Below are positions 5,740 through 35,741 of a DNA stretch of 50,917 bases, one piece after another (the first letter of the stretch is position 1; every line of letters starts with the position of its first letter). A program made the position numbers and the translations under genes. This DNA is from a virus (taxonomy: Duplodnaviria > Caudoviricetes): IMG/VR virus record IMGVR_UViG_3300007555_000007, positions 1 to 50,917 of that record; one strand, given 5' to 3'. The notes under the pieces are model-generated. The model was not told the origin of the DNA. It searched no databases and saw nothing but the letters and a program-made list of their open reading frames with translations.

Positions 5740-5907
5740 ATGCCATTTAAAAGCGAAGCACAAAGAAGATATATGCACAAGAACCTCCCTGAGATAGCAG
5801 TTCGATGGGAGGCTGAGTATGGTAGTAGCGATTTACCTAAGAGGATAAAACCTAAGACAAAACTTCAAGAGAAAAGAAGGAGAAGACGAAAGGGTAGAAG
5901 ATACTAG
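5740..5907 (+). CDS. Small basic protein (55 aa, MPFKSEAQRRYMH...KRRRRRKGRRY)
   Basis: Hand-translated; below the ORF-track length cutoff. ATG 7 nt after the upstream stop; the MPFKSxxQRR N-terminus is common in small phage proteins. Confidence 0.7.
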   Translation: MPFKSEAQRRYMHKNLPEIAVRWEAEYGSSDLPKRIKPKTKLQEKRRRRRKGRRY

Positions 5908-5922
5908 TGTCTTCGAAGACAC
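5907..5922. repeat. 16-bp palindrome GTGTCTTCGAAGACAC, copy 1 (where the + and - arms converge)
   Basis: Exact match read in the sequence. Confidence 0.95.
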
Positions 5923-5927
5923 AAAAA

Positions 5928-6083
5928 TTATTCGTATCTCATAGTAAGAAACACCTGAAATATTCCTAAATATAAAACGTGGTCTACTTCATAGGCATCA
6001 CCTACTGTAAACTCATAGTGTCTTACCCCTACAAGTAATCCTTTTACCATACCTACACTTAATCCCCAATGTGTTAACTTCAT
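5928..6083 (-). CDS. Hypothetical protein (51 aa, MKLTHWGLSVG...)
   Basis: Hand-translated; ATGA overlap with the upstream gene. Confidence 0.55.
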   Translation of the reverse strand: MKLTHWGLSVGMVKGLLVGVRHYEFTVGDAYEVDHVLYLGIFQVFLTMRYE

Positions 6084-6325
6084 AATAATAAATGTACTAA
6101 CCAAGCGATGAGCCCGTTTAAATTAAGAGCCACTAGATTCCATTGTTTTCTAGAACTCGTTTGAACTATAACAAATACAAACCCTATAACATAAAGTACA
6201 GGGTCTATTCTCCATTGAGCAGCAATTAAAAATCCACTACCCATATAACCAACTCTTGATGCAAACTTTTGATATGATGTTAGCTTGTTGGTGTACCTAA
6301 GTTTTTTTAATATTTTATTTATCAT
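6080..6325 (-). CDS. Small membrane protein
   Basis: Three hydrophobic segments; start moved to MINK to give an ATGA overlap with the holin. Confidence 0.6.
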   Translation of the reverse strand: MINKILKKLRYTNKLTSYQKFASRVGYMGSGFLIAAQWRIDPVLYVIGFVFVIVQTSSRKQWNLVALNLNGLIAWLVHLLL

Positions 6326-8572: not shown

Positions 8573-8809
8573 CTACTTACTATCCATTGCAAACAAAAGT
8601 GTCTTTCCTGTTTTTTCATCAATCTTTTTGATTGCTGAATATATCTTTCTAGACTTTGCTTTTACATCTTGCTTTTCTTTTTTTGTTGAGTCAGTACCTA
8701 AGTTACAGTACATATCAGAATCTATTCTGTACAACTCATCTAGCTTTTGCTTTAGACTCCAAGAAGAGAATCCAATAATTTTATCTACGTCTTCAAATTT
8801 ATAATCCAT
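8573..8809 (-). CDS. Hypothetical protein
   Basis: ORF in a tightly packed operon. Confidence 0.65.
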   Translation of the reverse strand: MDYKFEDVDKIIGFSSWSLKQKLDELYRIDSDMYCNLGTDSTKKEKQDVKAKSRKIYSAIKKIDEKTGKTLLFAMDSK

Positions 8810-9329
8810 TGTATATCGTATTAAGTTTTCTGTGTATTACCGGGATATCCTTATCTTTTGTTCTTTCAGTTATCAATTCAAACAAAGATGAGAACCTTCC
8901 TTCTCTCTCTCTGAACGATTTACATTCATCTTTTAGACTAGCATTGTCCAAATTTAACATTTTTATTTGATTATTTGCAAGAATTAATAGGTTTTTTAAT
9001 TGCAAACTACTTTTATGCTCAAGCAACATATCGTGTGAATTGTAAACTTCTTTTACTATATGGTACTTTGATATAAAAGATTTTTCATTTTTAAGCATCC
9101 AATCTAATGACTTTAAACAATGAATAATTGTTGCGTGATTCTTACCTATCATTCTTCCAATAGCAGTATACCCATAGCCTTCATCATACATTATACTCAT
9201 AAATGTTAACCGAGCATCTGTATACTCCCTCCTTCTGCATTTATCCATAAGGTCTAGCTCGTAAACTGAATTTACAATGTTCTTTAAAGTAATAGCTTGT
9301 GTTTTTCTATGTGTTTCTAATTTATTCAT
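8799..9329 (-). CDS. DnaA C-terminal-like HTH DNA-binding protein with coiled coil
   Basis: RRREYTDAR...GYTAIGRMIGKNHATIIH resembles DnaA domain IV. Confidence 0.7.
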   Translation of the reverse strand: MNKLETHRKTQAITLKNIVNSVYELDLMDKCRRREYTDARLTFMSIMYDEGYGYTAIGRMIGKNHATIIHCLKSLDWMLKNEKSFISKYHIVKEVYNSHDMLLEHKSSLQLKNLLILANNQIKMLNLDNASLKDECKSFREREGRFSSLFELITERTKDKDIPVIHRKLNTIYNGL

Positions 9330-9858: not shown

Positions 9859-11091
9859 TTACAAACTTAGTAAATCTTTCTTGAAATGTCTAAGTGTATA
9901 ATCTTTTTTTTGCTGAACAGACTTATATATGTCGTGCTCAATACCGTTCTTTGCGAACACCCAATACACTTCGTTGTTACTTCTGTCTTTGGTAGTCATC
10001 CTATCCCTGCTCTGCCAATAACTTGTTGCACTGAAATCAATATTGTAGTACACTAAATACTTGGCTTGCTTTAGAGAGATACCTTCCCTTCCCGAAACAA
10101 TCTGAAGAGCTATACTCTTATCTGTGTCTTCGAAGACACTAAGTTCTGTGGTTAGTTGGTCTCCGTAAACTTCCTTAAGAGCCTTCAACTCTTCCTTGAA
10201 CTTATAGAATATTCCTATCTTGTTGGTGCAAAAGTTGTCATAGATAAACTGAGACTTGCTCAAGTCTATTATCTTTGAATTTCCCGACTCAAACTTAATA
10301 GTTCCCGAATACAATTGATGCAACTTCATCATCAACTTCACGGGAGTATCTGCCAAAATAACTTCATCACTTCCTTCTATAACTAAATCCTTCTTCAACT
10401 TCGCTGCCAACTTGTACGTCATGTCACTCATCTCAACTTCAAGAATCTTTTCTTTTATCTTAACCTTGAAGCCTGCTTCTGCTTGCGAGTAGTTAATCGT
10501 GAATGGTTTTACCGCATCTATTATGGTTTCTAGACCTGTAGAGTAGTCACGTATGTTAAGACCTCCTATAGGTCTTGTTTTAACTTTAACATAATCATCA
10601 GAGAATCTGTAAAAGTTTTTGTAACTGCTAAAAGGATTGCCTTTTATACCGTACACTTGATGATACATCTGACTGTACGATTCGGGTGTTGGTGTTCCCG
10701 AAAGAAATATAACCTTACTGTTGTTCTTCTGAATAAGCTCCTTCACTTGCTTTGCTCTCTTGCTTGGTTTAGGATAAGCTCCCATTGAATGAGACTCATC
10801 ACACACAATAATATCCCACTTTACATTGGGTAGTTTATGAATGCTTTCATAGTTCATTACAAACATAACAAAAGATGCGGGGCAAATCAAATCATAATCC
10901 CTACTAATTGATAACATTGCTTTCTTTTTTGTTAAGAACAAAACATTTTCAACACCCATCTTATCACATATCCCTAAACTAGTCAAGGTCTTACCTGTTC
11001 TAACCTCCATAGCTAGGTAGACAAAATTACTTGTACGTAAAATATCCGTACCTTTTTTTATAATCTCTGTTTGATAGTCTCTAAATTCCAT
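9859..11091 (-). CDS. SNF2-like SF2 helicase
   Basis: RDYQ, EVRTGKT, CDESH, SGTP, GREGISL, QSRDR motifs. Confidence 0.85.
   Translation of the reverse strand: MEFRDYQTEIIKKGTDILRTSNFVYLAMEVRTGKTLTSLGICDKMGVENVLFLTKKKAMLSISRDYDLICPASFVMFVMNYESIHKLPNVKWDIIVCDESHSMGAYPKPSKRAKQVKELIQKNNSKVIFLSGTPTPESYSQMYHQVYGIKGNPFSSYKNFYRFSDDYVKVKTRPIGGLNIRDYSTGLETIIDAVKPFTINYSQAEAGFKVKIKEKILEVEMSDMTYKLAAKLKKDLVIEGSDEVILADTPVKLMMKLHQLYSGTIKFESGNSKIIDLSKSQFIYDNFCTNKIGIFYKFKEELKALKEVYGDQLTTELSVFEDTDKSIALQIVSGREGISLKQAKYLVYYNIDFSATSYWQSRDRMTTKDRSNNEVYWVFAKNGIEHDIYKSVQQKKDYTLRHFKKDLLSL
10124..10139. repeat. 16-bp palindrome copy 2 (inside the helicase CDS, read as SVFEDT)
   Basis: Exact match. Confidence 0.95.
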
Positions 11092-13725: not shown

Positions 13726-13792
13726 TAGTGTAGATTTAATGTTAAATTTAATTAGTTAACTAACTGATTCTCAATAACAGTGTTGAAAATGT
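13726..13792. repeat. 67-bp dispersed repeat, copy A (upstream of primase-helicase)
   Basis: Gapless 52/67 identity to 25611-25677, counted by hand. Confidence 0.8.
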
Positions 13793-13894
13793 TAATTTTA
13801 AAAACGATAGTACGAATATAAAATAAATATATAATTAAAAAAAATATATACAGTATATAATAGTAATTATTTTGCATACCTAACATTAGGGGTC

Positions 13895-13942: not shown

Positions 13943-14188
13943 TTAGAAGTCTACACCATCTGATACCTCTTCTTTTTTCTTTGGTTCGAATGTATCTAAC
14001 TCTACATATAGTTTTCCACTACGTGCTTTGTTTACATTAAGATTCACCCAACCATTCTTTTGGTTTTCTTTCAAGAAGACAATAGCTTCGTCAACCTTGA
14101 TTGACTGTTGTCCAATTACAAAATCGGGAGCACCCTCTCTTCTCTTGAATGAAAATCCGTTTGCGAATACTTTCTCTGTGTTACTCAT
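13943..14188 (-). CDS. Putative single-stranded DNA-binding protein
   Basis: Small beta-rich protein with acidic/aromatic tail (SDGVDF), next to exonuclease and annealing genes. Confidence 0.55.
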   Translation of the reverse strand: MSNTEKVFANGFSFKRREGAPDFVIGQQSIKVDEAIVFLKENQKNGWVNLNVNKARSGKLYVELDTFEPKKKEEVSDGVDF

Positions 14189-14291
14189 AACTAATAATGT
14201 TTATTTGTTCTTCCAATGTGTTTATAGTTTGAAGGATAACTTCTTGTTTCTCTTCTCGTGTAATGCAATCCATTGGAATTTGAAACCACAT
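14181..14291 (-). CDS. Possible small ORF (MWFQIPMDC...)
   Basis: Hand-translated; fills the gap and overlaps the SSB start. Confidence 0.35.
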   Translation of the reverse strand: MWFQIPMDCITREEKQEVILQTINTLEEQINIISYE

Positions 14292-14305
14292 TACCCGTTT
14301 TTTTT

Positions 14306-14321
14306 GTGTCTTCGAAGACAC
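14306..14321. repeat. 16-bp palindrome copy 3
   Basis: Exact match. Confidence 0.95.
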
Positions 14322-14328
14322 TAGTCTT

Positions 14329-15060
14329 CTAAAGATATTCATCTATGAAATAGCTTGACAGTTCTTCCTTGGGAGTATCCCCAAAGAAGGTGTTATATAC
14401 CTCAACCGCCCTCTTTACCTTCTCTTCGCCGCCCCTAATAAACTCCTCAGTAGGTCTGAATACACCCATCTGATGCGATGTCTTGTCTATTACAAAGAAT
14501 ATCAAAGGCTTGTTAAATAGTTGTTGGTATATGTATGCTTGACTATCGTAGTTGTACTTCTTAGCACTCCACTTAAAGTCAGCTAGCTTGCTTGTTGTCT
14601 TTAAATCAATAAGCATATCATCACATACGATGTCCACTTTACCTTTCCACATAAGACCCATTATCTCTTTGACAGCGGGTTCTTCATAGATGTTTCCATC
14701 CTTGTATATGTTATCAAAAAAGTATAGGTTATTCTTCATGGTATCAGTTAAATTAACAACCTCCTCAGCCTCTTTAGTTAGTAAAGCAACCTCTACACCC
14801 ATCTCAGCAATAGCTTCCTTGTAAAGCTTTGTATTACGTGATGATGAATCTATAGTTACGACTTCACTAGCCTTGTCGGGTTCTATTAATAACTGATGAA
14901 AATATCTACCTTTTGCAAAGTTTTGATTATCGGGTCTACTAACTCCGAACTCCCTCGGATTAGTAAGAAGAGTACCTATATCACTATTAGAGAGGAATTT
15001 TTTACCTCCCTCTCCATAGTAATACTTGTCATCTTTTAGCTTCTCTATCACATCTTTCAT
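14329..15060 (-). CDS. PD-(D/E)XK exonuclease (RecE/DUF3799-like)
   Basis: LSNSDI, G..FH..L.EP, KGKVD, IDLKTT, YDSQAYIY. Confidence 0.8.
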   Translation of the reverse strand: MKDVIEKLKDDKYYYGEGGKKFLSNSDIGTLLTNPREFGVSRPDNQNFAKGRYFHQLLIEPDKASEVVTIDSSSRNTKLYKEAIAEMGVEVALLTKEAEEVVNLTDTMKNNLYFFDNIYKDGNIYEEPAVKEIMGLMWKGKVDIVCDDMLIDLKTTSKLADFKWSAKKYNYDSQAYIYQQLFNKPLIFFVIDKTSHQMGVFRPTEEFIRGGEEKVKRAVEVYNTFFGDTPKEELSSYFIDEYL

Positions 15061-15713
15061 TATGCGATAGCCTTTTGAATCTCTTTCTCAATAGTAGCTG
15101 TGAATCCGTACTTAGTCTTGAGTTGAGAAATTAATTTATCAGCACCCGCAGACTTGTTAGCTACCACGTACTTCAATACCTTATCCCAATTCGCATCACC
15201 CTTTGATAGTTTGATTGTTTTTACTTCCTTCTTAGGGGCTACTGTAACCTTTGGAGTTTCACTCTCTGTTTCGGGTAAGTCTTCACCCGCATAAATGTAG
15301 TGACCTAATCCAAACATTGCTAGGTTCTTAACTAGACAACGCATAAGAGTCTTGTTTATATCGAACATAGTTGCACCCGCAACCTTCTTAGTTCCATACC
15401 TTGTTTCGAACTCATAAGCTTCAGCCTTCATAGATTTGTTAGCACCATCCATAACGGGTAGCCACATACCTAGCGTCTCCCCTTCTATTGTAACGATAGT
15501 TCTACACATATACCCAAGACTCTCATCGTATACGTATGGTAAGTCTGAATCGCCGCACTGAACTTCATACGTTGCACTAGGATAATGTTTCTTAACTTCT
15601 CCCCAAGCCCAAGCCCAAGATAAGTAAGTTAGATTGTTCTTCTTTTCAACCTTATCATTTACGTTAATGGCTGACAGTGTTTCAAACACTGATTTTGTTT
15701 TTGAATTTGACAT
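15060..15713 (-). CDS. Single-strand annealing protein, Sak3/DUF1071 family
   Basis: VEKKNNLTYLSWAWAW...MWLPVMD...INKTLMRCLVKNLAMFGLGHYIYAGEDLP. Confidence 0.85.
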   Translation of the reverse strand: MSNSKTKSVFETLSAINVNDKVEKKNNLTYLSWAWAWGEVKKHYPSATYEVQCGDSDLPYVYDESLGYMCRTIVTIEGETLGMWLPVMDGANKSMKAEAYEFETRYGTKKVAGATMFDINKTLMRCLVKNLAMFGLGHYIYAGEDLPETESETPKVTVAPKKEVKTIKLSKGDANWDKVLKYVVANKSAGADKLISQLKTKYGFTATIEKEIQKAIA

Positions 15714-15720
15714 AGTTTAT

Positions 15721-16125
15721 TTAATTTAATTGATTGATAATCTTACTTGATTCGGAAAACTTTAGTAGGTAATGCTCTCTCATATCCTTGAGACCCATTA
15801 TGTATCTTCCATTTTTTCTTGTGTTAATTTCAGCTCTTATTCTCTCCTCAATAACGTCAAGTTTTCTACGGTAGTTAGACAAAGATACGACATATTTTCC
15901 ATAAACCCAACCTTTTTCTTCAAAAAAAAGATACTCATTACTCTCTATTTCCCTATAGAAATCACCGCCTAGATGGGTATTGTATATAACTATTTCACCC
16001 GTTTGAATATCTCTTTCTATCTTAACTCCTTTTGAGATTACAGAGTTACAACATTTAGAATCTATCTTAGCTATGTTGTTGTCAGAATTAGCTTGATTAT
16101 ATATATCTTGTAGAGTGTAACTCAT
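15721..16125 (-). CDS. Hypothetical protein
   Basis: ORF in operon. Confidence 0.6.
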   Translation of the reverse strand: MSYTLQDIYNQANSDNNIAKIDSKCCNSVISKGVKIERDIQTGEIVIYNTHLGGDFYREIESNEYLFFEEKGWVYGKYVVSLSNYRRKLDVIEERIRAEINTRKNGRYIMGLKDMREHYLLKFSESSKIINQLN

Positions 16126-16411
16126 TGTTAAAGTTTTTTATAAAGGTTCTGTAGTCTTTGTCACACAAAGAGTTTTCCTTGACTACGTTTATTCCGTGAA
16201 TAATACTTGAATGAGATATGCTATAGCCTTGCTCCTCCATAAAAGATTGTATCTGAATTACCTTCATACTTCTTTCTTTGCATAAGTAATATAACATATA
16301 CCTAGCGTCTACTATCTCTCTACTTTTATTCTTTTGGAATAATGATTCCAACTCTACATCGTATAAAGCTGAAATCTTATCTGCGTAACTTTTAAAAATT
16401 TGTTTCTTCAT
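16097..16411 (-). CDS. Second DnaA C-terminal-like HTH protein
   Basis: KSREIVDARYMLYYL...HSSIIHG; start moved to MKKQ. Confidence 0.65.
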   Translation of the reverse strand: MKKQIFKSYADKISALYDVELESLFQKNKSREIVDARYMLYYLCKERSMKVIQIQSFMEEQGYSISHSSIIHGINVVKENSLCDKDYRTFIKNFNNELHSTRYI

Positions 16412-16550
16412 CTTTGTATGTTTGTTTTTGTGAAAAAATTTCTCCAAAATACTTAAACAAATCCTCCATTTGTGTCTTCGAAGACACAAGGTATGGATTA
16501 GTAGGCTCTTGTTCTCTTTGTCTCATAAATTCTTCGCTTGATTTTCCCAT
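16392..16550 (-). CDS. Hypothetical protein (52 aa, MGKSSEEFMRQRE...)
   Basis: Hand-translated; ATG 1 nt after the upstream stop; carries palindrome copy 4 in frame (VSSKT). Confidence 0.55.
   Translation of the reverse strand: MGKSSEEFMRQREQEPTNPYLVSSKTQMEDLFKYFGEIFSQKQTYKDEETNF
16472..16487. repeat. 16-bp palindrome copy 4
   Basis: Exact match. Confidence 0.95.
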
Positions 16551-16551
16551 C

Positions 16552-16956
16552 TTAAATAAATTCTTTTACACTGTTATACAATATATCTTCGCACTCTGCG
16601 ACTGATTTTTTTTGAAATACTTTTTTCTGTATTCCGTGTTCGTTCTGTGTTACTGTAACAGCCATGCATAAATCACTGTCCAATAACTGCACTATCATAC
16701 CTCCTCCGTACCTCATAATATCTTTGCAGTTGCTTGAAATATTGAAATCGTTGTATGATATTTTAGAATCTTCGGTAAGGTAGTTTTTTTCATAATCCTT
16801 TCGACTCATTAATCTACCCGTATCCAACCAAGCAAACTTCTTTTCTTTTTTGCTTGCATCTTTTAATAGGTCTAACCTTGTTAGGTAATGTTTGTCGGGC
16901 TTTTCTTGAGCGGTCTCTATTCCCGCATCAAAGTCTATAATATTTAGTCTTTCCAT
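16552..16956 (-). CDS. Hypothetical protein
   Basis: ORF with A-rich leader downstream of a promoter. Confidence 0.65.
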   Translation of the reverse strand: MERLNIIDFDAGIETAQEKPDKHYLTRLDLLKDASKKEKKFAWLDTGRLMSRKDYEKNYLTEDSKISYNDFNISSNCKDIMRYGGGMIVQLLDSDLCMAVTVTQNEHGIQKKVFQKKSVAECEDILYNSVKEFI

Positions 16957-16985
16957 TGTAAATAAATTAAAGTTTAATAATTGTT

Positions 16986-17017
16986 CAAATATAGTATAAT
17001 TCTAGTGTACTACCAAA
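16986..17017 (-). promoter_or_regulatory. Bacteroidota-type promoter (-33 TTTG, N20, -7 TATATTTG)
   Basis: Matches the TTTG-N19..21-TAnnTTTG consensus; intergenic, upstream of the replication/recombination genes. Confidence 0.7.
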
Positions 17018-17021
17018 TATT

Positions 17022-17306
17022 TTACTTAGAAATATCTGATATTCTTACGTACCAATAATTATCTATTAGTTTTTTCTCGCTGTTGTTCCAAGAGCAAGCA
17101 TCCGTGTATTTTTTTGGAAGCTTTCCAACTTCAATACATATAGGTATGTTGTTCTCGCCGCAGAAATTAATCTCCTCTTCAGATTCTAATAAGCTTTCTG
17201 ATTCATCGTGGTGAACTGCAAATAGTTCTACTGCGTTAGCTCTAAATAAATCTATTGCTGAGTGAGAAACTTCTTTCCATATAAAATTGTCCTTTGTAAT
17301 AATCAT
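17022..17306 (-). CDS. Hypothetical protein
   Basis: ORF with ATGA overlap. Confidence 0.6.
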   Translation of the reverse strand: MIITKDNFIWKEVSHSAIDLFRANAVELFAVHHDESESLLESEEEINFCGENNIPICIEVGKLPKKYTDACSWNNSEKKLIDNYWYVRISDISK

Positions 17307-17503
17307 ACTCTTAGTTTTTTAAATATTGATTGCTTATGCATTTCCCCTAACTTATCACAGAAACTCCTTAGTTCTTCTACGGGTATCCTATGTTTTGCTC
17401 TAAAGTTTTCTACGAAGGTAGCGTAAGGATACTTCCCTTCTTTGTAAAAATTCTTTTCGTAATCTACTACTCCCGATACTGTGCATTTTTTTAATCCGTT
17501 CAT
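17303..17503 (-). CDS. Hypothetical protein
   Basis: Probable start MNGLKK (ATGA overlap). Confidence 0.55.
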   Translation of the reverse strand: MNGLKKCTVSGVVDYEKNFYKEGKYPYATFVENFRAKHRIPVEELRSFCDKLGEMHKQSIFKKLRV

Positions 17504-17751
17504 AATTTGTTTTTTAAAGTTTCTATATATAATGTTGCATCCATCAACTCCTCTTGTAGGTGTTGTAGCCATTGTAAAGGAGTTAAATCTCCTCGGTCTA
17601 GTGTAGTTCCATATTTTTCAATACCTACTCTTGAGCGTTCTCTGTAAGCGTCTATTACTTTGCTTACCACCTTGTCTTCAGTACCCTCTGATAGGTAATG
17701 TATTCCCGTGTCTAAATCTAATTTCCCCATATCTCTATAGCTGATTGGCAA
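17500..17751 (-). CDS. Conserved small phage protein, possible all-alpha NTP pyrophosphohydrolase (MazG-like)
   Basis: RSRVGIEKYGTTLDR..L...QWLQHLQEELMDATLY. Confidence 0.55.
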   Translation of the reverse strand: MPISYRDMGKLDLDTGIHYLSEGTEDKVVSKVIDAYRERSRVGIEKYGTTLDRGDLTPLQWLQHLQEELMDATLYIETLKNKL

Positions 17752-17833
17752 GTGATAGAAAGTATTGCTACCATTGATAGTATAACAATAACTACAACTA
17801 GATAAGAAAGAAATCTTTCTGTGCGTTCTGTCT

Positions 17834-17968
17834 TCATAATTTTACATCTATTCGATTAATAATTTTTTGTTCCAAATCCTCAAGAGTTTTGCGTAAAAGG
17901 ATATTATCCTCCTTGCTGTCTTTAGAAATAAAAGAAAGAATCTCTTGTATTCTGTCTAGTGTTGTCAT
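17834..17968 (-). CDS. Hypothetical protein (44 aa, MTTLDRIQE...)
   Basis: Hand-translated; first ORF downstream of hammerhead 1. Confidence 0.45.
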   Translation of the reverse strand: MTTLDRIQEILSFISKDSKEDNILLRKTLEDLEQKIINRIDVKL

Positions 17969-17988
17969 ACATCTGTTTTTAAAGGTTT

Positions 17989-18037
17989 CCGTTTCATCCT
18001 TTAGGAATCATCAGTGCAAGTACTCACTTGCATACGG
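17989..18037 (-). ncRNA. Hammerhead ribozyme HH1, type III
   Basis: Minus strand CCGUA^UGCAAG-UGAGUA-CUUGCA CUGAUGA UUCC-UAAA-GGAU GAAA CGG; full core and three stems; cleavage predicted at 18033/18032. Confidence 0.85.
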
Positions 18038-18044
18038 TAAAGGA

Positions 18045-18060
18045 GTGTCTTCGAAGACAC
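18045..18060. repeat. 16-bp palindrome copy 5 (7 nt 5' of HH1 on the transcript)
   Basis: Exact match; flanks extend the hairpin. Confidence 0.95.
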
Positions 18061-18067
18061 CCCTTGT

Positions 18068-18128
18068 TCTTACTTTCCAAAGTACCCCGCCTTGTGATAA
18101 GGGTCGGCACACATTTCAGAAAGCAAGA
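18068..18128 (-). ncRNA. Unassigned structured RNA (long hairpin with internal loops)
   Basis: UCUUGCUUUCUGAA/UUUGGAAAGUAAGA, GUGCC/GGUAC, CCUU/AAGG; G-U wobbles pair only on the minus strand. Confidence 0.45.
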
Positions 18129-18189
18129 TAACTATTATCATAATGATATACAAAATTATTTTGCCTTGTCTGTCTGTCATATCGTTTGT

Positions 18190-18957: not shown

Positions 18958-18958
18958 C

Positions 18959-20098: not shown

Positions 20099-20114
20099 GT
20101 GTCTTCGAAGACAC
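20099..20114. repeat. 16-bp palindrome copy 6 (2 nt 5' of HH2 on the transcript)
   Basis: Exact match; flanks extend the hairpin. Confidence 0.95.
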
Positions 20115-21244: not shown

Positions 21245-21260
21245 GTGTCTTCGAAGACAC
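21245..21260. repeat. 16-bp palindrome copy 7 (between HH3 and the GATase start)
   Basis: Exact match. Confidence 0.95.
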
Positions 21261-23082: not shown

Positions 23083-23093
23083 AATATTTGTTT

Positions 23094-23249
23094 TTAATTA
23101 TTTGTGTCTTCGAAGACACCTATTACTTTTCCGTATTTACATACACTGTCGTACCAATTACTAAAGTGTTTTTCGCTCTTGAACTCAATAGGATAAGAAG
23201 AATACTTACCCTCGTGAGATTTTACTGATGCAATACATTTGCCTATCAT
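23094..23249 (-). CDS. Hypothetical protein (51 aa, MIGKCIASVK...GVFEDTNN)
   Basis: Hand-translated; first ORF downstream of HH4; contains palindrome copy 8. Confidence 0.45.
   Translation of the reverse strand: MIGKCIASVKSHEGKYSSYPIEFKSEKHFSNWYDSVCKYGKVIGVFEDTNN
23104..23119. repeat. 16-bp palindrome copy 8
   Basis: Exact match. Confidence 0.95.
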
Positions 23250-23269
23250 ATAAGAATAAATTTAAGTTA

Positions 23270-23320
23270 GCTGTTTCGACCTTTTGGTCTCGTCAGTACA
23301 GATACACATCTGTAGACAGC
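23270..23320 (-). ncRNA. Hammerhead ribozyme HH4, type III
   Basis: Minus strand GCUGUC^UACAGA-UGUGUA-UCUGUA CUGACGA GACC-AAAA-GGUC GAAA CAGC; fully canonical; cleavage predicted at 23315/23314. Confidence 0.93.
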
Positions 23321-23338
23321 GGGAGTATCTCTACTCCC
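23321..23338 (-). other. Hairpin immediately 5' of HH4 on the transcript
   Basis: GGGAGTA-N4-TACTCCC inverted repeat with no T tract. Confidence 0.6.
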
Positions 23339-23346
23339 ATTTGCTG

Positions 23347-24306
23347 TTAGTATTGCCTTACGCAATCTCTATCCCAAAAATCACGCATTGTGTTTGTTGG
23401 GTCAATCCATCTTTGGGTCTTTGGATTGATTTTGTTGGACACAATTGTCTTGCGGAATGCTTCTGCCAATTCCATCATCTCTAACACCTTGGTCTCATCT
23501 TGTTCGTACATAGACATCAAGATTGGCTTTAGCTTGTTTAGAAGCGATTTGTGGCTTCCTCTCGGTGAGTTGATACTATGGTCAACTATCACATACATCA
23601 TCTCATAACGTCTCATCATCTGCTTCACAGATTGGAATCGTGATGGTAATCTAAACTCAAGAGCGTGTCTCATTGGTTTAGCTACTGTGTATTTGTGGTG
23701 TCTTCCACCCATCATTTTAACTAGTCTTCTTCTAGTGTTTTGGTCGTGTCTCATCGTGATGTTCTTGTTGCAATATCCATTGCCTAATCTGTGACGAAAC
23801 AATGCAAGCAGAATACCGCAGTTCTTACGCATTGCATCCATCACCTCGTAGCCATCCATCCCATCTACAGAGACAGTGATATGTCCACCGCATTTGGTAT
23901 TTGATGGTGAAAACTCATCTTCAATAATCGTTCTAGCTTGGTGCATCATATTGAAAACTTTGTTTCTCCATTTACCTCTAGGTAGCAAAGGTAAGATGTT
24001 TGTCACTGCTTCATAACCGCAAGATGAATCACGTTCAAATCCTGCAAATAGAGTGTACTCTTGTACAGCTCCTCGGTGAAATCTAGTCTTTTCAACTTCG
24101 AAACCTATAGCAAATCTGCTCTTAAAATCACCTTGGTTTTGCTCGTCTTCTAGGATATTACGTCTATCATTCCATTTCAGTGTAGCAATGTCACTGCTCT
24201 TTGCACCCTTGTGATGCTCTAGGGATGCATCGCATCCATGGTATCTGTTTACTCTCGCTCTCGCTGAGTTTCCTGTTACTGTGTAGTTAATCTCGTTTGT
24301 GTTCAT
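23347..24306 (-). CDS. Putative amidoligase (COOH-NH2 ligase, glutamine synthetase-like fold)
   Basis: IGFEVE, DSSCGYEAV, CGGHITVS, LEFRL motifs; start moved to MNTNE. Confidence 0.75.
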   Translation of the reverse strand: MNTNEINYTVTGNSARARVNRYHGCDASLEHHKGAKSSDIATLKWNDRRNILEDEQNQGDFKSRFAIGFEVEKTRFHRGAVQEYTLFAGFERDSSCGYEAVTNILPLLPRGKWRNKVFNMMHQARTIIEDEFSPSNTKCGGHITVSVDGMDGYEVMDAMRKNCGILLALFRHRLGNGYCNKNITMRHDQNTRRRLVKMMGGRHHKYTVAKPMRHALEFRLPSRFQSVKQMMRRYEMMYVIVDHSINSPRGSHKSLLNKLKPILMSMYEQDETKVLEMMELAEAFRKTIVSNKINPKTQRWIDPTNTMRDFWDRDCVRQY

Positions 24307-24320
24307 AGTAGTAGTATTTT

Positions 24321-24336
24321 GTGTCTTCGAAGACAC
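24321..24336. repeat. 16-bp palindrome copy 9 (just upstream of the amidoligase start)
   Basis: Exact match. Confidence 0.95.
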
Positions 24337-24339
24337 TGA

Positions 24340-24936
24340 TTAAGATAATTTTGATGTTAAAAATGCGATTGCTGTAGCGATGTCCTCTGCTCCGTTCGTA
24401 GTAATTACTTTGCCTTGGTCATCAATTCGTACAGATACTGTGGTTTCACCTTTGAATGTCATCGTGAATACTGTTGATGTTCTCTCTGCTGATGCAGTTT
24501 CTGTGGTTTCACCGCCATTACTAGCGAACTTCAATAGGGATGCTACTGACATAGATGCAGAATCACCGTTTGCATCTGCTTCAGCTACAGCAGATTTGAA
24601 TTGTGCTACGGTTTCGGGCTGTTCGTTCTGTAGCTTACCTACCTTCAGCATTTTGTAGAAAAATGACTTCTTCCATCCGTACAATTTGGTGTAGAAATCT
24701 TCCTTTGTCCAAGTTACACCATAGTCATCCATCTGTGCTTTTCCTTGTGCTGAGTTGAACCAACCCCAAGATTTAACTACAATCTCACTTAGCTGTAGTG
24801 ATTTCTCAAATTTCACTTTCTTGGCATCAGCTACACCGCTAATTAGAGACTCGATGTCTCTTAGGCTTCCACCTATCTGATTTGCTACAGATACTTCGTT
24901 GAACAATGCACTTTCAATACTTAATAAATTTCTCAT
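24340..24936 (-). CDS. Hypothetical protein, first gene of the leftward arm
   Basis: Probable start MRNLLS; possible HTH at TKEDFYTKLYGWKKSFFYKM. Confidence 0.65.
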   Translation of the reverse strand: MRNLLSIESALFNEVSVANQIGGSLRDIESLISGVADAKKVKFEKSLQLSEIVVKSWGWFNSAQGKAQMDDYGVTWTKEDFYTKLYGWKKSFFYKMLKVGKLQNEQPETVAQFKSAVAEADANGDSASMSVASLLKFASNGGETTETASAERTSTVFTMTFKGETTVSVRIDDQGKVITTNGAEDIATAIAFLTSKLS

Positions 24937-25256
24937 CTTGTTGGTTTTTAGATGATTAGATGGCAATATTGCCGATATGACTAGAACTTTGCACTTCATT
25001 GCTGTGTAAAACGCTGATTGTCAGCGAGTTAGCGTATTTGTTGATGTGACATAGTCTATCCATGGTGTAAAAATAGTCTATTTCTACGTTCTGTGCAAGT
25101 TTTGAATACGTTTTCTGTCGTTGTATTGTGCATTTGCTGTCTATTTCTTTGCAGTCAAGGGATTGCGTAATGTCTGCTCACGTACATTTGTTTAGGTAAA
25201 ATGTCTATGGGGTAGGGGCTATGCTTTGTCTCTACTTGTCTGTAGAGTTTTACAAT

Positions 25257-25272
25257 GTGTCTTCAAAGACAC
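25257..25272. repeat. Palindrome variant GTGTCTTCAAAGACAC (copy 10)
   Basis: One central mismatch; lies in the noncoding divergence region. Confidence 0.85.
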
Positions 25273-25489
25273 AACAACAGCATTATAAGGGAAACTTCAC
25301 CGTATAACGTGATACGTAGCACAGCTACAGCTACAGTGTGCTGTGGATGGCTGTGGAAAAAAGCTAAAAAAATTGGGATGCACCGATTGAAAAAGCAAAA
25401 TCGCTCGCAAAAAAAAATCGTTTTCGGATTGGGGTGTCGTCACGTGCAGCGGTATATAACCCAAATACTACATATATCTAATAAATATT

Positions 25490-25519
25490 TTTGACTTACA
25501 TTTATTTTTTATATATTTG
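25490..25519 (+). promoter_or_regulatory. Bacteroidota-type promoter candidate (TTTG-N18-TATATTTG)
   Basis: Consensus boxes with a slightly short spacer. Confidence 0.45.
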
Positions 25520-25549
25520 TTCTTTCATATAGTTTGTTTGATAGTTAGG

Positions 25550-25581
25550 AAAAGGGTTTGATTTAGGTCAGCCCTTTTTTT
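25550..25581 (+). terminator. Intrinsic terminator
   Basis: AAAGGG...CCCTTT hairpin followed by a T run. Confidence 0.6.
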
Positions 25582-25610
25582 ATGCAGTAAATATTCCTAT
25601 TGTGTAGACT

Positions 25611-25677
25611 TAGTGTAGATTCTATGTAGATTTTTTATAGCTAACTATTTGATTATCAGTATTAGTGTTGAAAATGT
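25611..25677. repeat. 67-bp dispersed repeat, copy B
   Basis: Gapless 52/67 identity to 13726-13792. Confidence 0.8.
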
Positions 25678-25768
25678 AGATATTAAAAGAGAATTATACA
25701 GTAAGAAATATATAAATAGAGTTTCTCTCTCTCTCTCTATAGGAGATGTTATTTTGTGCATTATTACA

Positions 25769-25800
25769 TTTGATGTATTAAATAAAAAATACTATCTTTG
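25769..25800 (+). promoter_or_regulatory. Bacteroidota-type promoter for groEL (TTTG-N20-TATCTTTG)
   Basis: Matches consensus and spacing; implies the ATG at 25825 rather than the TTG at 25798. Confidence 0.75.
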
Positions 25801-25824
25801 TCAAATAAATCAAATCTAATACTT

Positions 25825-27432
25825 ATGAATAATCAAATGGGGTTCACCCCTAAAGACTTAAAGTTCGGTGAAGATGGTAGAGTTAAACTAAAAGCCGGAA
25901 TCGAAAAGATTGCTAACGCAGTAAAGAGCACCCTCGGTCCTAGAGGTAATACAGTTCTTATTGAATCACAACATCATACAGGAGGAATCACGGTAACTAA
26001 GGATGGAGTTACGGTCGCTAAGGCGGTTGACTTGTTAGACCCGGTTGAGAATCTTGCGGTACGTATTATGAAAGAGGCTGCTGATAGAACAGCTAGCTCT
26101 GCCGGTGATGGAACGACTACAGCTATTGTGCTTACCGAGGCTCTTGTCGAGCAGGGTCACATTCATCTTGGTGATGGTGTAAACAACACGCAGGTTCTAC
26201 GTGAGCTTGTTAGTGAGACTGAGCAGGTCGTAAAGACATTGAAAAAGAAAAGCAAGAGTGTAACTGACTCAAAGTTACTTGACGTTGCGACTATCTCTGC
26301 GAACAATGACGCTAAGGTAGGTCGTATTATATCTGACGTATACAAGTCGGTCGGTAAGGATGGGATTGTAACGGTAGAGAAATCTGACAGTTCAGAGACA
26401 ACTTACACCACAACCAAAGGTCTTATGGTAGAGAGAGGTTACTCTTCTCCTTTGTTCATTAACAACCAAAAGAAAGACGAGTGTATCTTAGAGGATGTTC
26501 ATATCTTGGTATCTGATGCTGAGATAACAAACATACTTCAGATTGAGAATGTACTTAAACCAATCATTGCTGAGAACAAGAAGCTTCTTCTTATTGCACC
26601 GTGTGCAACTAATGTGCTAAACACATTGGCGGCTAACGTTATGAAAAACAACTTGAAGATATGTAGTATAACTCCCCCGCAGTTCGGATATAAACAACAC
26701 GAATTAATGCAAGATATCGCCATCTCGGTTGGAGCTACATACTTTTCAGAAAAGACAGGTGATGATTTGTCACTAATGGGGTTTGATGATTTAGGTCACG
26801 CACCAAAGGTTATTGTAGAAAAGTCACAGACTGTGATTTTAAAAGACGACAATCACTCAGATGAGATTGACGAGAGAGTAAAACAACTATGGGATAGCTA
26901 CGAGAACACAAGTAGAGTTGCTGACAAAGAGTTTATCTTGTCACGTATCGCTTCATTGACAGGTGGTGTTGGTGTAATTAAAGTTGGTGGTCAGACAGAC
27001 CTAGAGCAGAAAGAGTTGTTTGACAGGATTGACGATGCTGTGTGTGCAGTACGTTCTGCAATGCAAGAAGGTATACTTCCGGGAGGAGGTGTGTCGCTAA
27101 TGTATATCGGTCAAGAGATTCTGAAAAAACAAACTGACGATAAAAATAAAAAAATTGCTTACGCAATTTTAGGTAACGCATTGCAAGCACCTGTTATGCA
27201 GATTCTTGATAATGCGGGATATCACATTAATGATGTGTACCCTGAGTGGGATATAAAGTTTGGAGAAGGATACAATGTTGCTAGTGAGAAGTTTGGTAAC
27301 ATGATAAGGATGGGTGTGATAGACCCAATGAAAGTTACAAAGAGTGCACTACAAAATGCAGTATCTGTAGCGGTTACATTACTTAGTACGAATGCTATTA
27401 TTACAATGGCACGAACTTATGACACTGAGTAG
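25825..27432 (+). CDS. groEL: Phage-encoded chaperonin GroEL (Cpn60)
   Basis: TLGPRG, TKDGVTVAK, AGDGTTTA, GILPGGG, GVIDP. Confidence 0.97.
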   Translation: MNNQMGFTPKDLKFGEDGRVKLKAGIEKIANAVKSTLGPRGNTVLIESQHHTGGITVTKDGVTVAKAVDLLDPVENLAVRIMKEAADRTASSAGDGTTTAIVLTEALVEQGHIHLGDGVNNTQVLRELVSETEQVVKTLKKKSKSVTDSKLLDVATISANNDAKVGRIISDVYKSVGKDGIVTVEKSDSSETTYTTTKGLMVERGYSSPLFINNQKKDECILEDVHILVSDAEITNILQIENVLKPIIAENKKLLLIAPCATNVLNTLAANVMKNNLKICSITPPQFGYKQHELMQDIAISVGATYFSEKTGDDLSLMGFDDLGHAPKVIVEKSQTVILKDDNHSDEIDERVKQLWDSYENTSRVADKEFILSRIASLTGGVGVIKVGGQTDLEQKELFDRIDDAVCAVRSAMQEGILPGGGVSLMYIGQEILKKQTDDKNKKIAYAILGNALQAPVMQILDNAGYHINDVYPEWDIKFGEGYNVASEKFGNMIRMGVIDPMKVTKSALQNAVSVAVTLLSTNAIITMARTYDTE

Positions 27433-27711: not shown

Positions 27712-27969
27712 ATGAAACCAATTAATAAATATATTGCAATCAAGACAATCGAGGAGGAGGTAAAGACTTCCTCCGGATTGTTATTATCCGCAGCCGATGT
27801 TGGTGAGATGAGATACAAGAAAGGTAAGGTAGTAAAACCCGGTACTGAGGTTTCAGTAATCAAAGAAGGTGACGTAATCTATTACGATGCACACGCAGGA
27901 TTTACTATGATACTAAATGATGAGCAGCACACGATTATTCTTGAGAGAGATGTCGTTGTTGTTTTATAA
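27712..27969 (+). CDS. groES: Co-chaperonin GroES (Cpn10)
   Basis: MKPINKYI...EEVKTSSGLLL...GKVVKPG...IKEGD...ILERDV. Confidence 0.92.
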   Translation: MKPINKYIAIKTIEEEVKTSSGLLLSAADVGEMRYKKGKVVKPGTEVSVIKEGDVIYYDAHAGFTMILNDEQHTIILERDVVVVL

Positions 27970-28393
27970 ACTTATTCATTTCTATAATCATATTCTTATA
28001 TACTTTATCTGTATAGGATACGTTCTTTAAGAATATAGGGTTTGCACTAGGACTCTCAGGGATTTCTTCCCCACTTAATTTTTTATACATAGAGCCAATC
28101 ATACGCTTTGTTTTGTAAGACAAAGTGTATATGGCTTTTTTCTTTCTCTTATAATCTCTTGGTCGAAAGACCTCAATCCAACCTTTTGCTTTTAGTTCGT
28201 CAAAACGCTTTTCGTTCCAACTAAAAATCTCATTGTACTCTGAGAATTTATCTTTATCAAAATAGTTTTCCGAGTAAAGGAATAACAGCATATCAAGCTC
28301 TCCTGTTGAAACCTTGTACTTAGCCTTTATAAAGTAACGGATTACTTTCCAATACTTCAAATAATCTGAAGAGGGTGTATGTTTATATAACAT
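27935..28393 (-). CDS. Putative winged-helix transcription regulator
   Basis: ELDMLLFLY...FDELKAKGWIEVFR...AIYTLS (MarR-like pattern); the only credible minus-strand gene in the late arm. Confidence 0.6.
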   Translation of the reverse strand: MLYKHTPSSDYLKYWKVIRYFIKAKYKVSTGELDMLLFLYSENYFDKDKFSEYNEIFSWNEKRFDELKAKGWIEVFRPRDYKRKKKAIYTLSYKTKRMIGSMYKKLSGEEIPESPSANPIFLKNVSYTDKVYKNMIIEMNKFIKQQRHLSQE

Positions 28394-32436: not shown

Positions 32437-32442
32437 AATATA

Positions 32443-32673
32443 ATGGATATTAGAAAAATTTCAGTAGGTCCTGATTATAAATCAGGAGCGATGCATTATT
32501 TAATTAATCAAGTAGTATTAGGTGGTAACTATACAATTCACCGAATAACACAAGATTCAAATAATAATAATTTTCTAATATACATAGAGAATGAAGACGA
32601 AGAAGTTTTTCTTTGGAAGTCTTTTAGCAGCACAGTTCCTGTGTCAATCGAATATAATATAAATTTTATTTAA
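32443..32673 (+). CDS. Hypothetical protein
   Basis: ORF in operon. Confidence 0.7.
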   Translation: MDIRKISVGPDYKSGAMHYLINQVVLGGNYTIHRITQDSNNNNFLIYIENEDEEVFLWKSFSSTVPVSIEYNINFI

Positions 32674-33236
32674 TGAAATCACCAACGGATTTTATAGTTC
32701 GTGCAGTCAATGGTAAAAGGTATAACAATACAAAAGACATTGCCGGATTAGAAATAATAATTAATACTTCAGAAGAAAACCACAAAGCATCTAATAGAGA
32801 AGCAGAGGTTGTTGAAACACCTATAGGCTATAATGGTCCTATTGAAAAAGGAGATATACTTTTAGTTCACCACAACGTATTTAAGTTTTACAATGATATG
32901 CGTGGTAGAAGAAAAAGTGGTAAAAGTTTTTTTAAGGATGATTTATTTTTTATAGATGACCAACAATTTTATATGTATAAAAATAAAGATGGTTGGAACT
33001 CTGTAGGAAAGTATTGTTTTGTTGAACCTACTAGCGTTAAAGATTCCTATCTTTATAAAGGAATAAAAGAAGAGCCTCTTCATGGGGTGATAAAATATTC
33101 CAATAGTCAACTTGAAAGTATTGGGATTAATACAGGGTGTGAAATTATATTTCAGCCTGAAAGCGAGTATGAGTTTACGGTAGATGGTGAGAAGTTATTT
33201 AGAATGTTTACTAATAATATAGTTGCTGTATTATGA
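32673..33236 (+). CDS. GroES-like (possibly tandem Cpn10-fold) protein
   Basis: Two halves each resemble Cpn10 (AEVVETP...IEKGD.LLV; GVIKY...GI..G..IIF...Y.F.VDGEKL). Confidence 0.45.
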   Translation: MKSPTDFIVRAVNGKRYNNTKDIAGLEIIINTSEENHKASNREAEVVETPIGYNGPIEKGDILLVHHNVFKFYNDMRGRRKSGKSFFKDDLFFIDDQQFYMYKNKDGWNSVGKYCFVEPTSVKDSYLYKGIKEEPLHGVIKYSNSQLESIGINTGCEIIFQPESEYEFTVDGEKLFRMFTNNIVAVL

Positions 33237-33514
33237 CATCAAACGAATTAAAGAAACAAATTATAGAAGCAGGTATGCGTGCTGTAAAGCAACTAATTAA
33301 AGTTGCAAAAGAAGATATCATTAAGCTTGACACTGACGATGAGTTGGCTGCTGATAGATTAAAGAATGCAGCAGCAACTAAGAAGCTTGCTATATTTGAT
33401 GCATTTGAAATACTTAATAGAATAGAAAGTGAGAAAGAAGCTTTAGAGTTATTAGAAAAAGGAGGCAATATAAAACATACAAACCAAGGATTTGCAGAAC
33501 GTAGGTCAAAATAA
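33233..33514 (+). CDS. Helical protein, candidate terminase small subunit
   Basis: Position immediately upstream of the terminase large subunit. Confidence 0.45.
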   Translation: MTSNELKKQIIEAGMRAVKQLIKVAKEDIIKLDTDDELAADRLKNAAATKKLAIFDAFEILNRIESEKEALELLEKGGNIKHTNQGFAERRSK

Positions 33515-35741
33515 ATTATACAGGGTAGTACCTAATTATGTTCCTAAGAATGTTATTACTAACAAGAACAGGAATAGTAGTTGGGTGTATGGCTATAATG
33601 AAAAGTATGATTTAGTTATTATATCTAAAACAGGAAAGCTTGGAGATGTTATAGAGATTTCCGGTTTAAAAATAGGTTTACCTCTTACTCCCAAAGAGTG
33701 TCTTCAAAGACACAAAGATAAACAACATCAGTATTGGGAAAGACATGAGATTCCAAAACAGCTTTCAAAAATAAAATCCATATTTCAATGGAATGAAATG
33801 CCTACTGCTTTTAAAGACAGGTGGGTGGATTATATTGAGAATGAATTTGATAGAAGAGAAGATGGGGTGTGGTTTATGAATAACGGAGTCAAAACCTACA
33901 TTACAGGTTCTCACTATATATACCTTCAGTGGTCAAGTATAGATGTTGGATACCCTGACTTTAGGGAAGCCAATAGAATATTTTGGATTTTTTGGGAAGC
34001 GTGTAAGGCTGACAAGAGAAGTTTTGGAATGACTTACTTAAAGATTAGACGTTCCGGTTTTTCTTTTATGGGCTCTAATGAGTGTGCTAACACAGGAACA
34101 TTAGCAAAAGATGCAAGGGTCGGAATACTTTCAAAGACAGGGTCGGATGCTAAAAAAATGTTTACAGACAAGGTAGTTCCAATATGTAACAGATTACCTT
34201 TCTTTTTTAAGCCTGTTCAAGATGGTATGGATAAGCCAAAAACAGAACTAGCATTTAGAATACCTGCTTCTAAGATTACTAAAAAAAATATGCACGAGGT
34301 TGACTCTGAGGAAATGACAGGGTTGGATACAACTATTGATTGGAAGAATACAGATGACAACTCTTATGATGGAGAAAAGTTATTGTTATTAGTGCATGAT
34401 GAAAGTGGTAAGTGGGTAAAACCAAATAATATATTAAACAATTGGCGAGTTACTAAAACCTGTTTAAGATTAGGTAGTAAAATTATTGGAAAGTGCATGA
34501 TGGGTTCAACATCAAATGCTTTAGAAAAAGGAGGAGGTAACTTTAAAAAGTTATATGAAGACTCCAATGTGGGAACAAGAAACTCAAATGGTCAAACTAA
34601 AAGCGGGTTATATTCACTTTTCATCCCTATGGAGCAAAACATGGAAGGCTTTATAGATAGATATGGAATGCCCGTTTTAAATAAACCCAAGAAACATATA
34701 CTAGGTGTAGATGGAGAAATGATTAATCAAGGGGCTGTAGATTATTGGGAAGCAGAAGTTGATTCTTTAAAAGATGACCCTGATGCTCTTAATGAATTTT
34801 ATCGTCAGTTTCCTAGAACAGAGTCACACGCATTTAGAGATGAAAGTAAACAATCTTTATTTAATCTAACTAAGATATATCAACAGATAGATTACAACGA
34901 AACTTTAATACAAGAACATCATGTAACTAGGGGTTCGTTTTATTGGAAGAACGGAATCAAAGATACTGAGGTTATGTTTAGACCTGACAAGCACGGTAGA
35001 TTTAATATTGGTTGGAGACCAAAGAAAAATTTGCAGAACAGAACAATAACAAAGAATGGTATTAAATATCCCGGAAACGAACACATAGGTTCTTTCGGCT
35101 GTGATAGTTACGATATATCAGGAACAGTTGGAGGGGGAGGTTCTAACGGAGCATTACACGGTGTGACTAAGTTTAATATGGATGATGCTCCTAGTAACGC
35201 TTTCTTTTTAGAATATGTAGCTAGACCTCAAACCGCAGAAATATTTTTTGAAGAAGTATTGATGGCTTGTGTTTTTTATGGTATGCCAATACTTTGTGAG
35301 AACAACAAGCCAAGACTACTCTATCATTTTAAAAATAGAGGATACAGGGGATTTAGTATGAATAGACCCGATAAAGCTTATAACAAGCTATCTAAGACAG
35401 AAAGAGAACTAGGGGGGATACCTAACTCATCTGAAGATGTAAAGCAGGCTCACGCAGCCGCTATCGAGTCGTATATAGAAAACCACATAGGATTAAATAT
35501 AGATGAAAGCAACTCAGATAGCTTGGAAGCTGATATGGGTACAATGCCTTTTATTAGAACTCTAGAAGATTGGGCAAAGTTTGATATTAGTAATAGAACA
35601 AAATTTGATGCAACTATAAGTTCAGGATTAGCTATAATGGCTAATCAAAAACACTTATACACACCTCAAAAAAAAGAGTCAAAAATTAGTCTTAACTTTG
35701 CAAGATATAGTAACTCAGGAAGAACAAGTCAATTATTATAA
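33492..35741 (+). CDS. terL: Terminase large subunit
   Basis: KIRRSGFS Walker A, LVHDESGK Walker B, GST, GCDSYD nuclease motif; start codon uncertain. Confidence 0.88.
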   Translation: MQNVGQNKLYRVVPNYVPKNVITNKNRNSSWVYGYNEKYDLVIISKTGKLGDVIEISGLKIGLPLTPKECLQRHKDKQHQYWERHEIPKQLSKIKSIFQWNEMPTAFKDRWVDYIENEFDRREDGVWFMNNGVKTYITGSHYIYLQWSSIDVGYPDFREANRIFWIFWEACKADKRSFGMTYLKIRRSGFSFMGSNECANTGTLAKDARVGILSKTGSDAKKMFTDKVVPICNRLPFFFKPVQDGMDKPKTELAFRIPASKITKKNMHEVDSEEMTGLDTTIDWKNTDDNSYDGEKLLLLVHDESGKWVKPNNILNNWRVTKTCLRLGSKIIGKCMMGSTSNALEKGGGNFKKLYEDSNVGTRNSNGQTKSGLYSLFIPMEQNMEGFIDRYGMPVLNKPKKHILGVDGEMINQGAVDYWEAEVDSLKDDPDALNEFYRQFPRTESHAFRDESKQSLFNLTKIYQQIDYNETLIQEHHVTRGSFYWKNGIKDTEVMFRPDKHGRFNIGWRPKKNLQNRTITKNGIKYPGNEHIGSFGCDSYDISGTVGGGGSNGALHGVTKFNMDDAPSNAFFLEYVARPQTAEIFFEEVLMACVFYGMPILCENNKPRLLYHFKNRGYRGFSMNRPDKAYNKLSKTERELGGIPNSSEDVKQAHAAAIESYIENHIGLNIDESNSDSLEADMGTMPFIRTLEDWAKFDISNRTKFDATISSGLAIMANQKHLYTPQKKESKISLNFARYSNSGRTSQLL
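33698..33713. repeat. Palindrome variant GTGTCTTCAAAGACAC (copy 11, inside terL, read as CLQRH)
   Basis: Identical to the variant at 25257. Confidence 0.85.
35693..35700 (+). promoter_or_regulatory. -7 box TAACTTTG upstream of portal
   Basis: Consensus match 45 nt before the ATG. Confidence 0.4.

Follow-up and report, generated by a model that had tools for sequence, protein, structure and literature searches.

A palindrome array and its candidate binding protein in uncultured Bacteroidota-type podophages

We describe an array of a 16-bp palindrome of the form GTGTC-N6-GACAC in the phage record IMGVR_UViG_3300007555_000007, together with the first early gene of this phage, E1, whose product very probably binds it. 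The whole record of 50,917 nucleotides, linear and 84% complete, was analyzed and is referred to as the window. Its genes include those for GroEL, GroES, the terminase (terL), a portal, a primase, a helicase and a Sak-like recombinase. The terL product is 46% identical to those of the Flavobacterium Elemovirus phages and 75% identical to that of MW202828. By these similarities the phage appears to belong among Bacteroidota-type podophages, and we infer a Bacteroidota host. A cultured member of the clade was not found, the nearest cultured terL being the one at 46% identity.

The palindrome array and its spread among phages

Nine exact and two variant copies of the palindrome are present in the window. 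The copy numbers, the coordinates, the positions of the variants and the reading frames through the helicase, a small open reading frame (ORF) and terL all agree with those of the first-pass annotation. The copies (without strand) and E1 are as follows.

5907..5922, exact copy, where the two arms converge
10124..10139, exact copy, within the helicase gene (9859-11091, minus strand), read as SVFEDT
14306..14321, exact copy, just past the exonuclease stop codon and within a small ORF (14181-14342), read as VSSKT
16472..16487, exact copy, within a small ORF (16392-16550), read as VSSKT
18045..18060, exact copy, intergenic, with a hammerhead-like RNA next on the minus strand
20099..20114, exact copy, intergenic, with a hammerhead core next on the minus strand
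21245..21260, exact copy, intergenic, with the ATG at 21221 23 bases on and a hammerhead-like RNA ahead
23104..23119, exact copy, at the end of an ORF (23094-23249), read as GVFEDT, with the next ATG 21 bases on
24321..24336, exact copy, immediately past the E1 stop codon
24340..24936, minus strand, E1, first early gene (198 amino acids), putative binder of the palindrome
25257..25272, variant copy GTGTCTTCAAAGACAC, about 320 bases upstream of the E1 start
33698..33713, variant copy GTGTCTTCAAAGACAC, within terL (33492-35741, plus strand), read as CLQRH

The gaps from start to start are 4217, 4182, 2166, 1573, 2054, 1146, 1859, 1217, 936 and 8441 bases. A scan allowing up to three mismatches found these 11 matches and no further near-copies in the window, which is therefore without a halo of degenerate sites. 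In 100 shuffled versions of the window the mean was 0.17 matches and the maximum 1. An adapter or assembly artefact, which the first-pass annotation had named as a refuting outcome of the reads, is ruled out because the eight copies from 14306 to 25257 are also covered, with few differing letters, by contigs from two further DNA runs (X4, X5), and because the exact 16-mer was found in 86 IMG/VR stretches with varied contexts.

From these stretches 42 records were chosen by the motif, and they had 1-21 copies each at two mismatches. When the records were chosen by terL instead (30, the longer ones of 78 loci), the GTGTC-N6-GACAC form was found in 5 and was missing from 25. Two of the latter have a variant of their own, GTCTC-N6-GAGAC in G046 and GTCCGT-N4-ACGGAC in G049. 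Other variants were TTCCGA-N4-TCGGAA (L324), GTCTG-N6-CAGAC (L603) and GTGTA-N6-TACAC (L608), and MW202828 has GTGTCGTTAACGACAC eleven times. The core of the palindrome is retained over phages with 35-45% GC. One relative (G031, L199) has two forms, nine 15-bp copies closest to E1 and eight 16-bp copies farther out, possibly a switch of specificity under way.

The first-pass annotation had also considered a parS/matS-like site, and a host site of that type found no support. In the bacterial genomes of GTDB, searched with the exact CG-centred 16-mer only, it was found in 86 stretches of 596 billion bases against about 140 expected by uniform chance, and none of the 80 stretches listed was from Flavobacteriaceae. 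A chromosomal site repeated in a host was not seen in this exact search of GTDB. A Pirellulaceae (planctomycete) bin had five single copies, each on a separate JADHUC contig, and a 5.5 kb contig of a Chthoniobacterales bin (L377, L378; JAFMJK010000263.1) had three and is likely a mis-binned piece of phage. The array is a trait of a clade of uncultured Bacteroidota-type podophages, neither an artefact nor a host chromosomal site. We found no description of the motif or of the protein in open-licence full text; supplements, including those of Bacteroidota phage papers, may bear on its novelty.

E1 follows the array

Among the 70 genes of the window, E1 alone followed the array. A profile search found it in 16 of 29 records, every one of them array-positive, and the site-bearing records without a match were two that end before the locus (G011 and G044) and one with three sites only (G009). 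By gene clustering E1 was the sole family present in 15/15 array-positive and 0/6 array-poor records (G050 may end before the locus). The E1 alignment was too divergent to serve as a seed, and loci were gathered through GroEL, the glutamine amidotransferase gene and motif scans. The set chosen by GroEL comprised 80 loci in 46 clusters, 34 of them with at least 2.9 kb upstream. Two or more sites were present in 16 of the 17 E1-positive clusters versus none of the 17 E1-negative ones, and a pattern-free search of the E1-negative loci gave no palindrome family of three or more. Over a GroEL tree of 54 tips E1 changed state 7 times and the array 8 times.

Five near-complete records nested among the positives have neither E1 nor any site at one mismatch (a positive control was run), and G058 retains decayed copies. 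G088, with 11 sites, can be compared with G083, with none and without E1; the two are 84-87% identical over most blocks. All six alignable sites are missing in G083, where the helicase reads DEFDT, and in the pair G089 and G084 likewise 0/6 sites are kept. These comparisons fit sites that were written in as well as sites that were purged. A clear replacement palindrome was not found in the E1-less genomes. Small repeats do occur in their early region: GCGTTTAAACGC four times in G061 (44837-49099), ATGATTGTGAAC seven times in G048 and GGAAACGCTCCC four times in G057 (4625-5555). GGACC/GGTCC was set aside as a replacement, being found in E1-positive and E1-negative sisters alike and probably representing repeats of tail genes.

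Five binders had been put forward in the first-pass annotation, and only the first early protein stood. The winged-helix protein (27935-28393) and the two DnaA-C-like proteins (8799-9329 and 16097-16411) are also present in array-negative relatives, and matches to the polyvalent protein are patchy. The winged-helix-like gene, on the minus strand, is conserved and faces groES in almost every relative, whether array-positive or not, and its counterpart in MW202828 is annotated as a repressor. The early arm of many E1-positive phages also has a fusion of glutamine amidotransferase and gamma-glutamyl cyclotransferase (20142-21221 in the window) and an unnamed gene of 319 amino acids (23347-24306).

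The E1 family has 375 representatives at E <=0.001. Searches by sequence, Pfam and Foldseek gave no named family and no solved relative; BFVD has four unnamed homologues. A tblastn search of GenBank phages gave no match, although it is insensitive, since MW202828 is among them and has a homologue by profile. A language-model neighbour, DUF3102 (PF11300; score 0.92), is a lead only, with 149/256 features shared and the family on 42% of that cluster, and it is absent from the Pfam listings of 23 and of 138 E1 homologues. The structural model (pLDDT 86.7 overall and 95.2 for residues 23-143) has helices throughout residues 6-139, and the helix-turn-helix (HTH) is preceded by 77 residues. It predicts a long dimer helix (25-61), the HTH (78-105) and, after it, a further pair of helices, an acidic linker and a small C-terminal domain of three strands and one helix (beta-beta-beta-alpha). 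Each of G87, K90, S91, Y94, K95, K98 and R129/S130 is the most frequent residue of its alignment column. As a homodimer E1 scored 0.79 against 0.00 for the best control. Of the solved pairs 20 of 30 reach the mark used, and of the single chains 1 of 23. The dimer runs agreed in at least 94% of contacts with pLDDT of at least 84, and the interface is formed by the long helix and the C-terminal domain. E1 is predicted to be an HTH homodimer, and this prediction and the link with the array support the dimeric binder proposed earlier.

A single residue of E1 varies with the site. At residue 95, which is position six of the recognition helix, all five proteins paired with a site that has G at position 5 carry D or E, and the remaining 37 distinct proteins carry K or R. 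For L603/L635 an acid was predicted before the protein was inspected, and E was found. Acidic side chains can read cytosine, and basic ones guanine on the opposite strand. Alanine at residue 91 accompanies GTCTC sites in three proteins, with two exceptions, and we do not claim it as a link.

The genes that contain sites are recoded to suit them. When the helicase was aligned, 11 of 23 relatives had the site in the SVFEDT type, 8 had a DEFN-type sequence without site, 2 had the site seven codons earlier and 1 had a near-copy. G049 reads SPFERT there, spelling its own GTCCG variant. Constraint on the protein is rejected, as the helicase residues shift to suit the site. At pair 6/11 the transcribed (sense) strand has C.A 17 times and U.G 8 times, and the pyrimidine-purine centre (191 of 192 sites) is used in both orientations (CA 61, TG 46). 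This excess of C.A and the two orientations are more easily reconciled with a dyad in double-stranded DNA than with an RNA stem. The codon alignment of the helicase had been proposed as a check that selection acts on the nucleic acid, and it came out in favour, together with the mismatches at pair 6/11 and the link with E1. The presence or absence of the array tracks E1, the site changes with residue 95, and genes are recoded to carry sites; E1 is the likely binder.

Arrangement of the sites along the genome

Site density declines on one side only, from E1 down the early arm. In 11 larger records, six of them handled as circles without being marked complete, and with counting begun 400 bases upstream of E1, the sites per 2.5 kb were 43, 28, 13, 12, 4, 4 and 7 along the early arm and 4, 3, 2, 0 and 4 on the groEL side. 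Past 10 kb they recur each 7-14 kb at common places (helicase, large virion gene, capsid terminator, terL and groEL), and four records have gaps of 24-40 kb. Most early sites lie between a stop codon and the next start. A site is found within 420 bases upstream of E1 in 26/28 upstream regions, and many relatives have one near +600 to +700 of E1. The promoter that could serve E1 is of a type that we take to be that of the host, after the Bacteroidota promoter consensus.

25068..25098, minus strand, candidate early promoter of E1, TTG-N20-TATTTTTA

The region of divergence (24936-25825) is where contigs of relatives break most and is a candidate genome end. Breaks 0-1.5 kb upstream of groEL amount to 12.7/45.3 versus 2.2/46 downstream, and a second peak (6.6/43.8) is located 1.5-3 kb downstream. 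A C-rich AGCCCC stretch recurs close to the upstream site in several relatives. Two AT-rich modules of 78 bases, 77% identical, are located upstream of primase (13726-13803) and of groEL (25611-25688).

Tyrosine integrase (PF00589) and ParA (PF13614) were found in 0/5 complete relatives, serine integrases not being part of the search, and a partition system is not supported. Genome by genome, the window and its relatives strongly avoid the 4-mers GATC, GGCC, GCGC, CATG or CTAG, likely a fingerprint of host restriction systems. Shielding from restriction is unsupported as the job of the array, the avoidance in E1-positive genomes being at least as strong as in E1-negative ones.

Four hammerhead-like ribozymes were found between early genes of the window, three of them adjoining a palindrome.

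17986-18040, minus strand, hammerhead-like ribozyme
20049-20072, minus strand, hammerhead-like ribozyme (core)
21273-21327, minus strand, hammerhead-like ribozyme
23268-23322, minus strand, hammerhead-like ribozyme

They score below the Rfam gathering threshold, at which the scan gave no match. In 9 genomes hammerhead cores begin 41-52 bases past a site, and eight array-positive records have no sense-strand core. In G049 the palindrome lies within one stem of a hammerhead. The flanks often lengthen the palindrome stem, and after the capsid gene the site is the terminator hairpin in many relatives; E1-less relatives have at the same place a terminator hairpin of different sequence.

Precedents and possible roles of E1 and its sites

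Three known systems resemble this one. In the parts of the publication available to us, the Cluster O mycobacteriophages are described with 34 copies of a 17-bp dyad repeat (7-3-7), without function or binder given (PMC4351075). There, as here, many dyad copies are intergenic as well as within genes, denser towards one genome end, mostly off promoters and absent from the host, in phages without integrase or parAB (PMC4351075). The phages are unrelated, the repeat here is 16 bp in 8-21 copies, and one gene tracks the array and its variants, whereas no binder is named in those passages. On that partial account they are the closest precedent in anatomy. The stoperators of Cluster A phages are 20-30 genome-wide repressor sites whose motif diverges with Rep and for which the available sections give a roadblock model (PMC6550527, PMC9283540). 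Many genome-wide sites tied to one phage gene are common to both, the tie here being a link and not repression. According to those sections, a stoperator is an asymmetric site with an orientation, to which a monomer binds, and it serves lysogeny (PMC6550527). Here the sites are symmetric and E1 is a predicted dimer. The asymmetry oriented with transcription was not found (CA and TG centres are both frequent on the sense strand), nor was a temperate life style indicated by the integrase and ParA searches in the five complete relatives.

KorB of plasmid RK2 is described, in the portions available, as a dimeric HTH protein with palindromic OB operators at variable distance from promoters (PMC11790492). 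With KorB, ParB and Noc, as far as those portions go, our system shares palindromic sites at variable promoter distance and, as predicted for E1, a small C-terminal dimer domain and an HTH dimer. Unlike KorB and ParB, E1 has no N-terminal CTPase domain (its N-terminus is all-helical in the model), would dimerize through its long N-terminal helix and has no ParA/IncC partner, PF13614 being missing from the complete relatives and no second gene tracking the array. The helical domain of E1 repeatedly gives weak fold matches to DNA-binding domains of this family, namely KorB 1r71 (Z 4.8, rmsd 4.1, 95 aligned), Spo0J 1vz0 (Z 4.4, 3.7, 94), KorB 8qa8 (Z 4.1, 3.0, 72) and ParB 6s6h (Z 4.0, 3.5, 91), all inside the background, where unrelated chains rank equally high. 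Foldseek gave no ParB-type match, and hhalign against 7 ParB/Noc proteins gave a probability of 0.1%, with no Pfam match. By analogy the E1 system would work like stoperators or KorB/OB, yet it belongs to neither.

We tentatively propose that E1 acts as a negative regulator, in the form of a dimer that turns down the promoter of its own gene and obstructs the host polymerase, a role that we regard as quite possible, if somewhat short of probable. E1 homodimers would bind the palindromes and damp the promoter of E1, and once bound they would stand as roadblocks in the path of host RNA polymerase, at points between early genes and at one point in each main late operon. The sparse late sites would delay late genes driven by host promoters until replication dilutes E1. 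In favour of this, sites bracket E1, their density goes along with the early transcription unit, and 13 promoter-like boxes were counted at 50-75 bases upstream of a site, against 3.8 expected; the stoperators are a precedent. Among the genes of the window none is recognised as an RNA polymerase or sigma factor, and the late promoters of the window look host-type, so that timing would require another device. Several points weigh against the proposal. The Fisher p value for the GroEL-chosen set makes no correction for kinship and its site patterns came from E1-positive loci, and L281 has a very divergent E1 with no clear array. Only two lineages, one of them on a long branch, underlie the link of residue 95, and the HTH assignment depends on the model together with fold matches that are weak (Z 3.5-4.8, within background). 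The distance from the site to the promoter-like TTG-N20-TATATTTG is not fixed (sites are at -31 to -363 from the E1 start), and most sites precede the -33 box by 100-200 bases, a place at which a roadblock has no effect. The excess of promoter-like boxes stems partly from repeated modules of two genomes. No late promoter-like box of the window is overlapped by a site, and the fixed overlap with a core promoter that is typical of classical operators was not found. Finally, with no integrase or ParA found there is no lysogeny to silence for.

The one-sided gradient that starts at E1, in which the gaps widen from about 1 kb to 7-14 kb and run on into the oppositely transcribed arm, could also be explained if the job of bound E1 were physical, that is, to ratchet, condense or tether linear DNA entering from the E1 end, or to block host helicase-nucleases that degrade it from there. 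This is the strongest of the alternatives. The position of the sites counts more than promoter context, and contigs break mostly just upstream of groEL, as a genome end there would cause. We consider this doubtful. The genome end is a candidate, there is the second peak of breaks, and the gradient was counted with those records handled as circles. Besides, entry and replication of close relatives proceed with neither E1 nor sites, a ratchet should need its sites late in entry rather than early, and the undiminished avoidance of restriction-type 4-mers leaves no general shielding from restriction. Equally uncertain, in our view rather unlikely, is a broader picture of a lytic podophage module in which a first-expressed HTH dimer of a new kind would coat a polar gradient of palindromes, pulling in, shielding or timing the entering DNA. 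Such a module would come and go as a unit, with sites appearing in and disappearing from essential genes over a few percent of sequence divergence.

An immunity or competition module, in which a resident phage would use its E1 to silence the leading end of superinfecting relatives, is improbable. It would drive the rise of new specificities and leave E1-less relatives cleanly devoid of sites, and at least six site variants have matching E1 changes, close E1-less sisters lack every site in an all-or-none manner, and in the sections available the repressors and stoperators of Cluster A phages diverge in parallel (PMC6550527). However, GTGTC-N6-GACAC is common to most lineages across wide divergence, which is slow for an arms race, the sites kept in the own genes of the phage would remain unexplained, and the five complete relatives have no lysogeny genes (PF00589 or ParA). 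The immunity reading is compatible with the regulator proposed above, as a side effect. That the palindrome acts as an RNA hairpin protecting or marking the ends of early transcripts beside self-cleaving ribozymes is very improbable. The adjoining hammerheads, the extended stems and the capsid terminator point to it, but the array-positive records without hammerhead cores, the preference for C.A above U.G, the use of both loop orientations, the copies deep within coding regions and the differently sequenced terminators of E1-less relatives do not fit, and a hairpin is likely a secondary use of some copies. A host protein reading the site (parS, matS or other), with E1 a linked passenger or cofactor, is hardly credible. 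The core is kept in phages of different GC, and only one form of the site was searched in bacteria; against it, that form is below chance in GTDB with Flavobacteriaceae absent from the stretches listed, the site variants follow E1, and among phage genes E1 alone goes with the array.

For apparently lytic phages, dispersed palindrome arrays have so far lacked an explanation, with no binder named in Cluster O, and this abundant aquatic clade of phages offers a candidate binder of a new family. The natural pairs of site and protein variants, together with near-isogenic relatives with and without the module, make the binder, its specificity code and its function directly testable, and the variants of the array and E1 supply orthogonal pairs of operator and protein.

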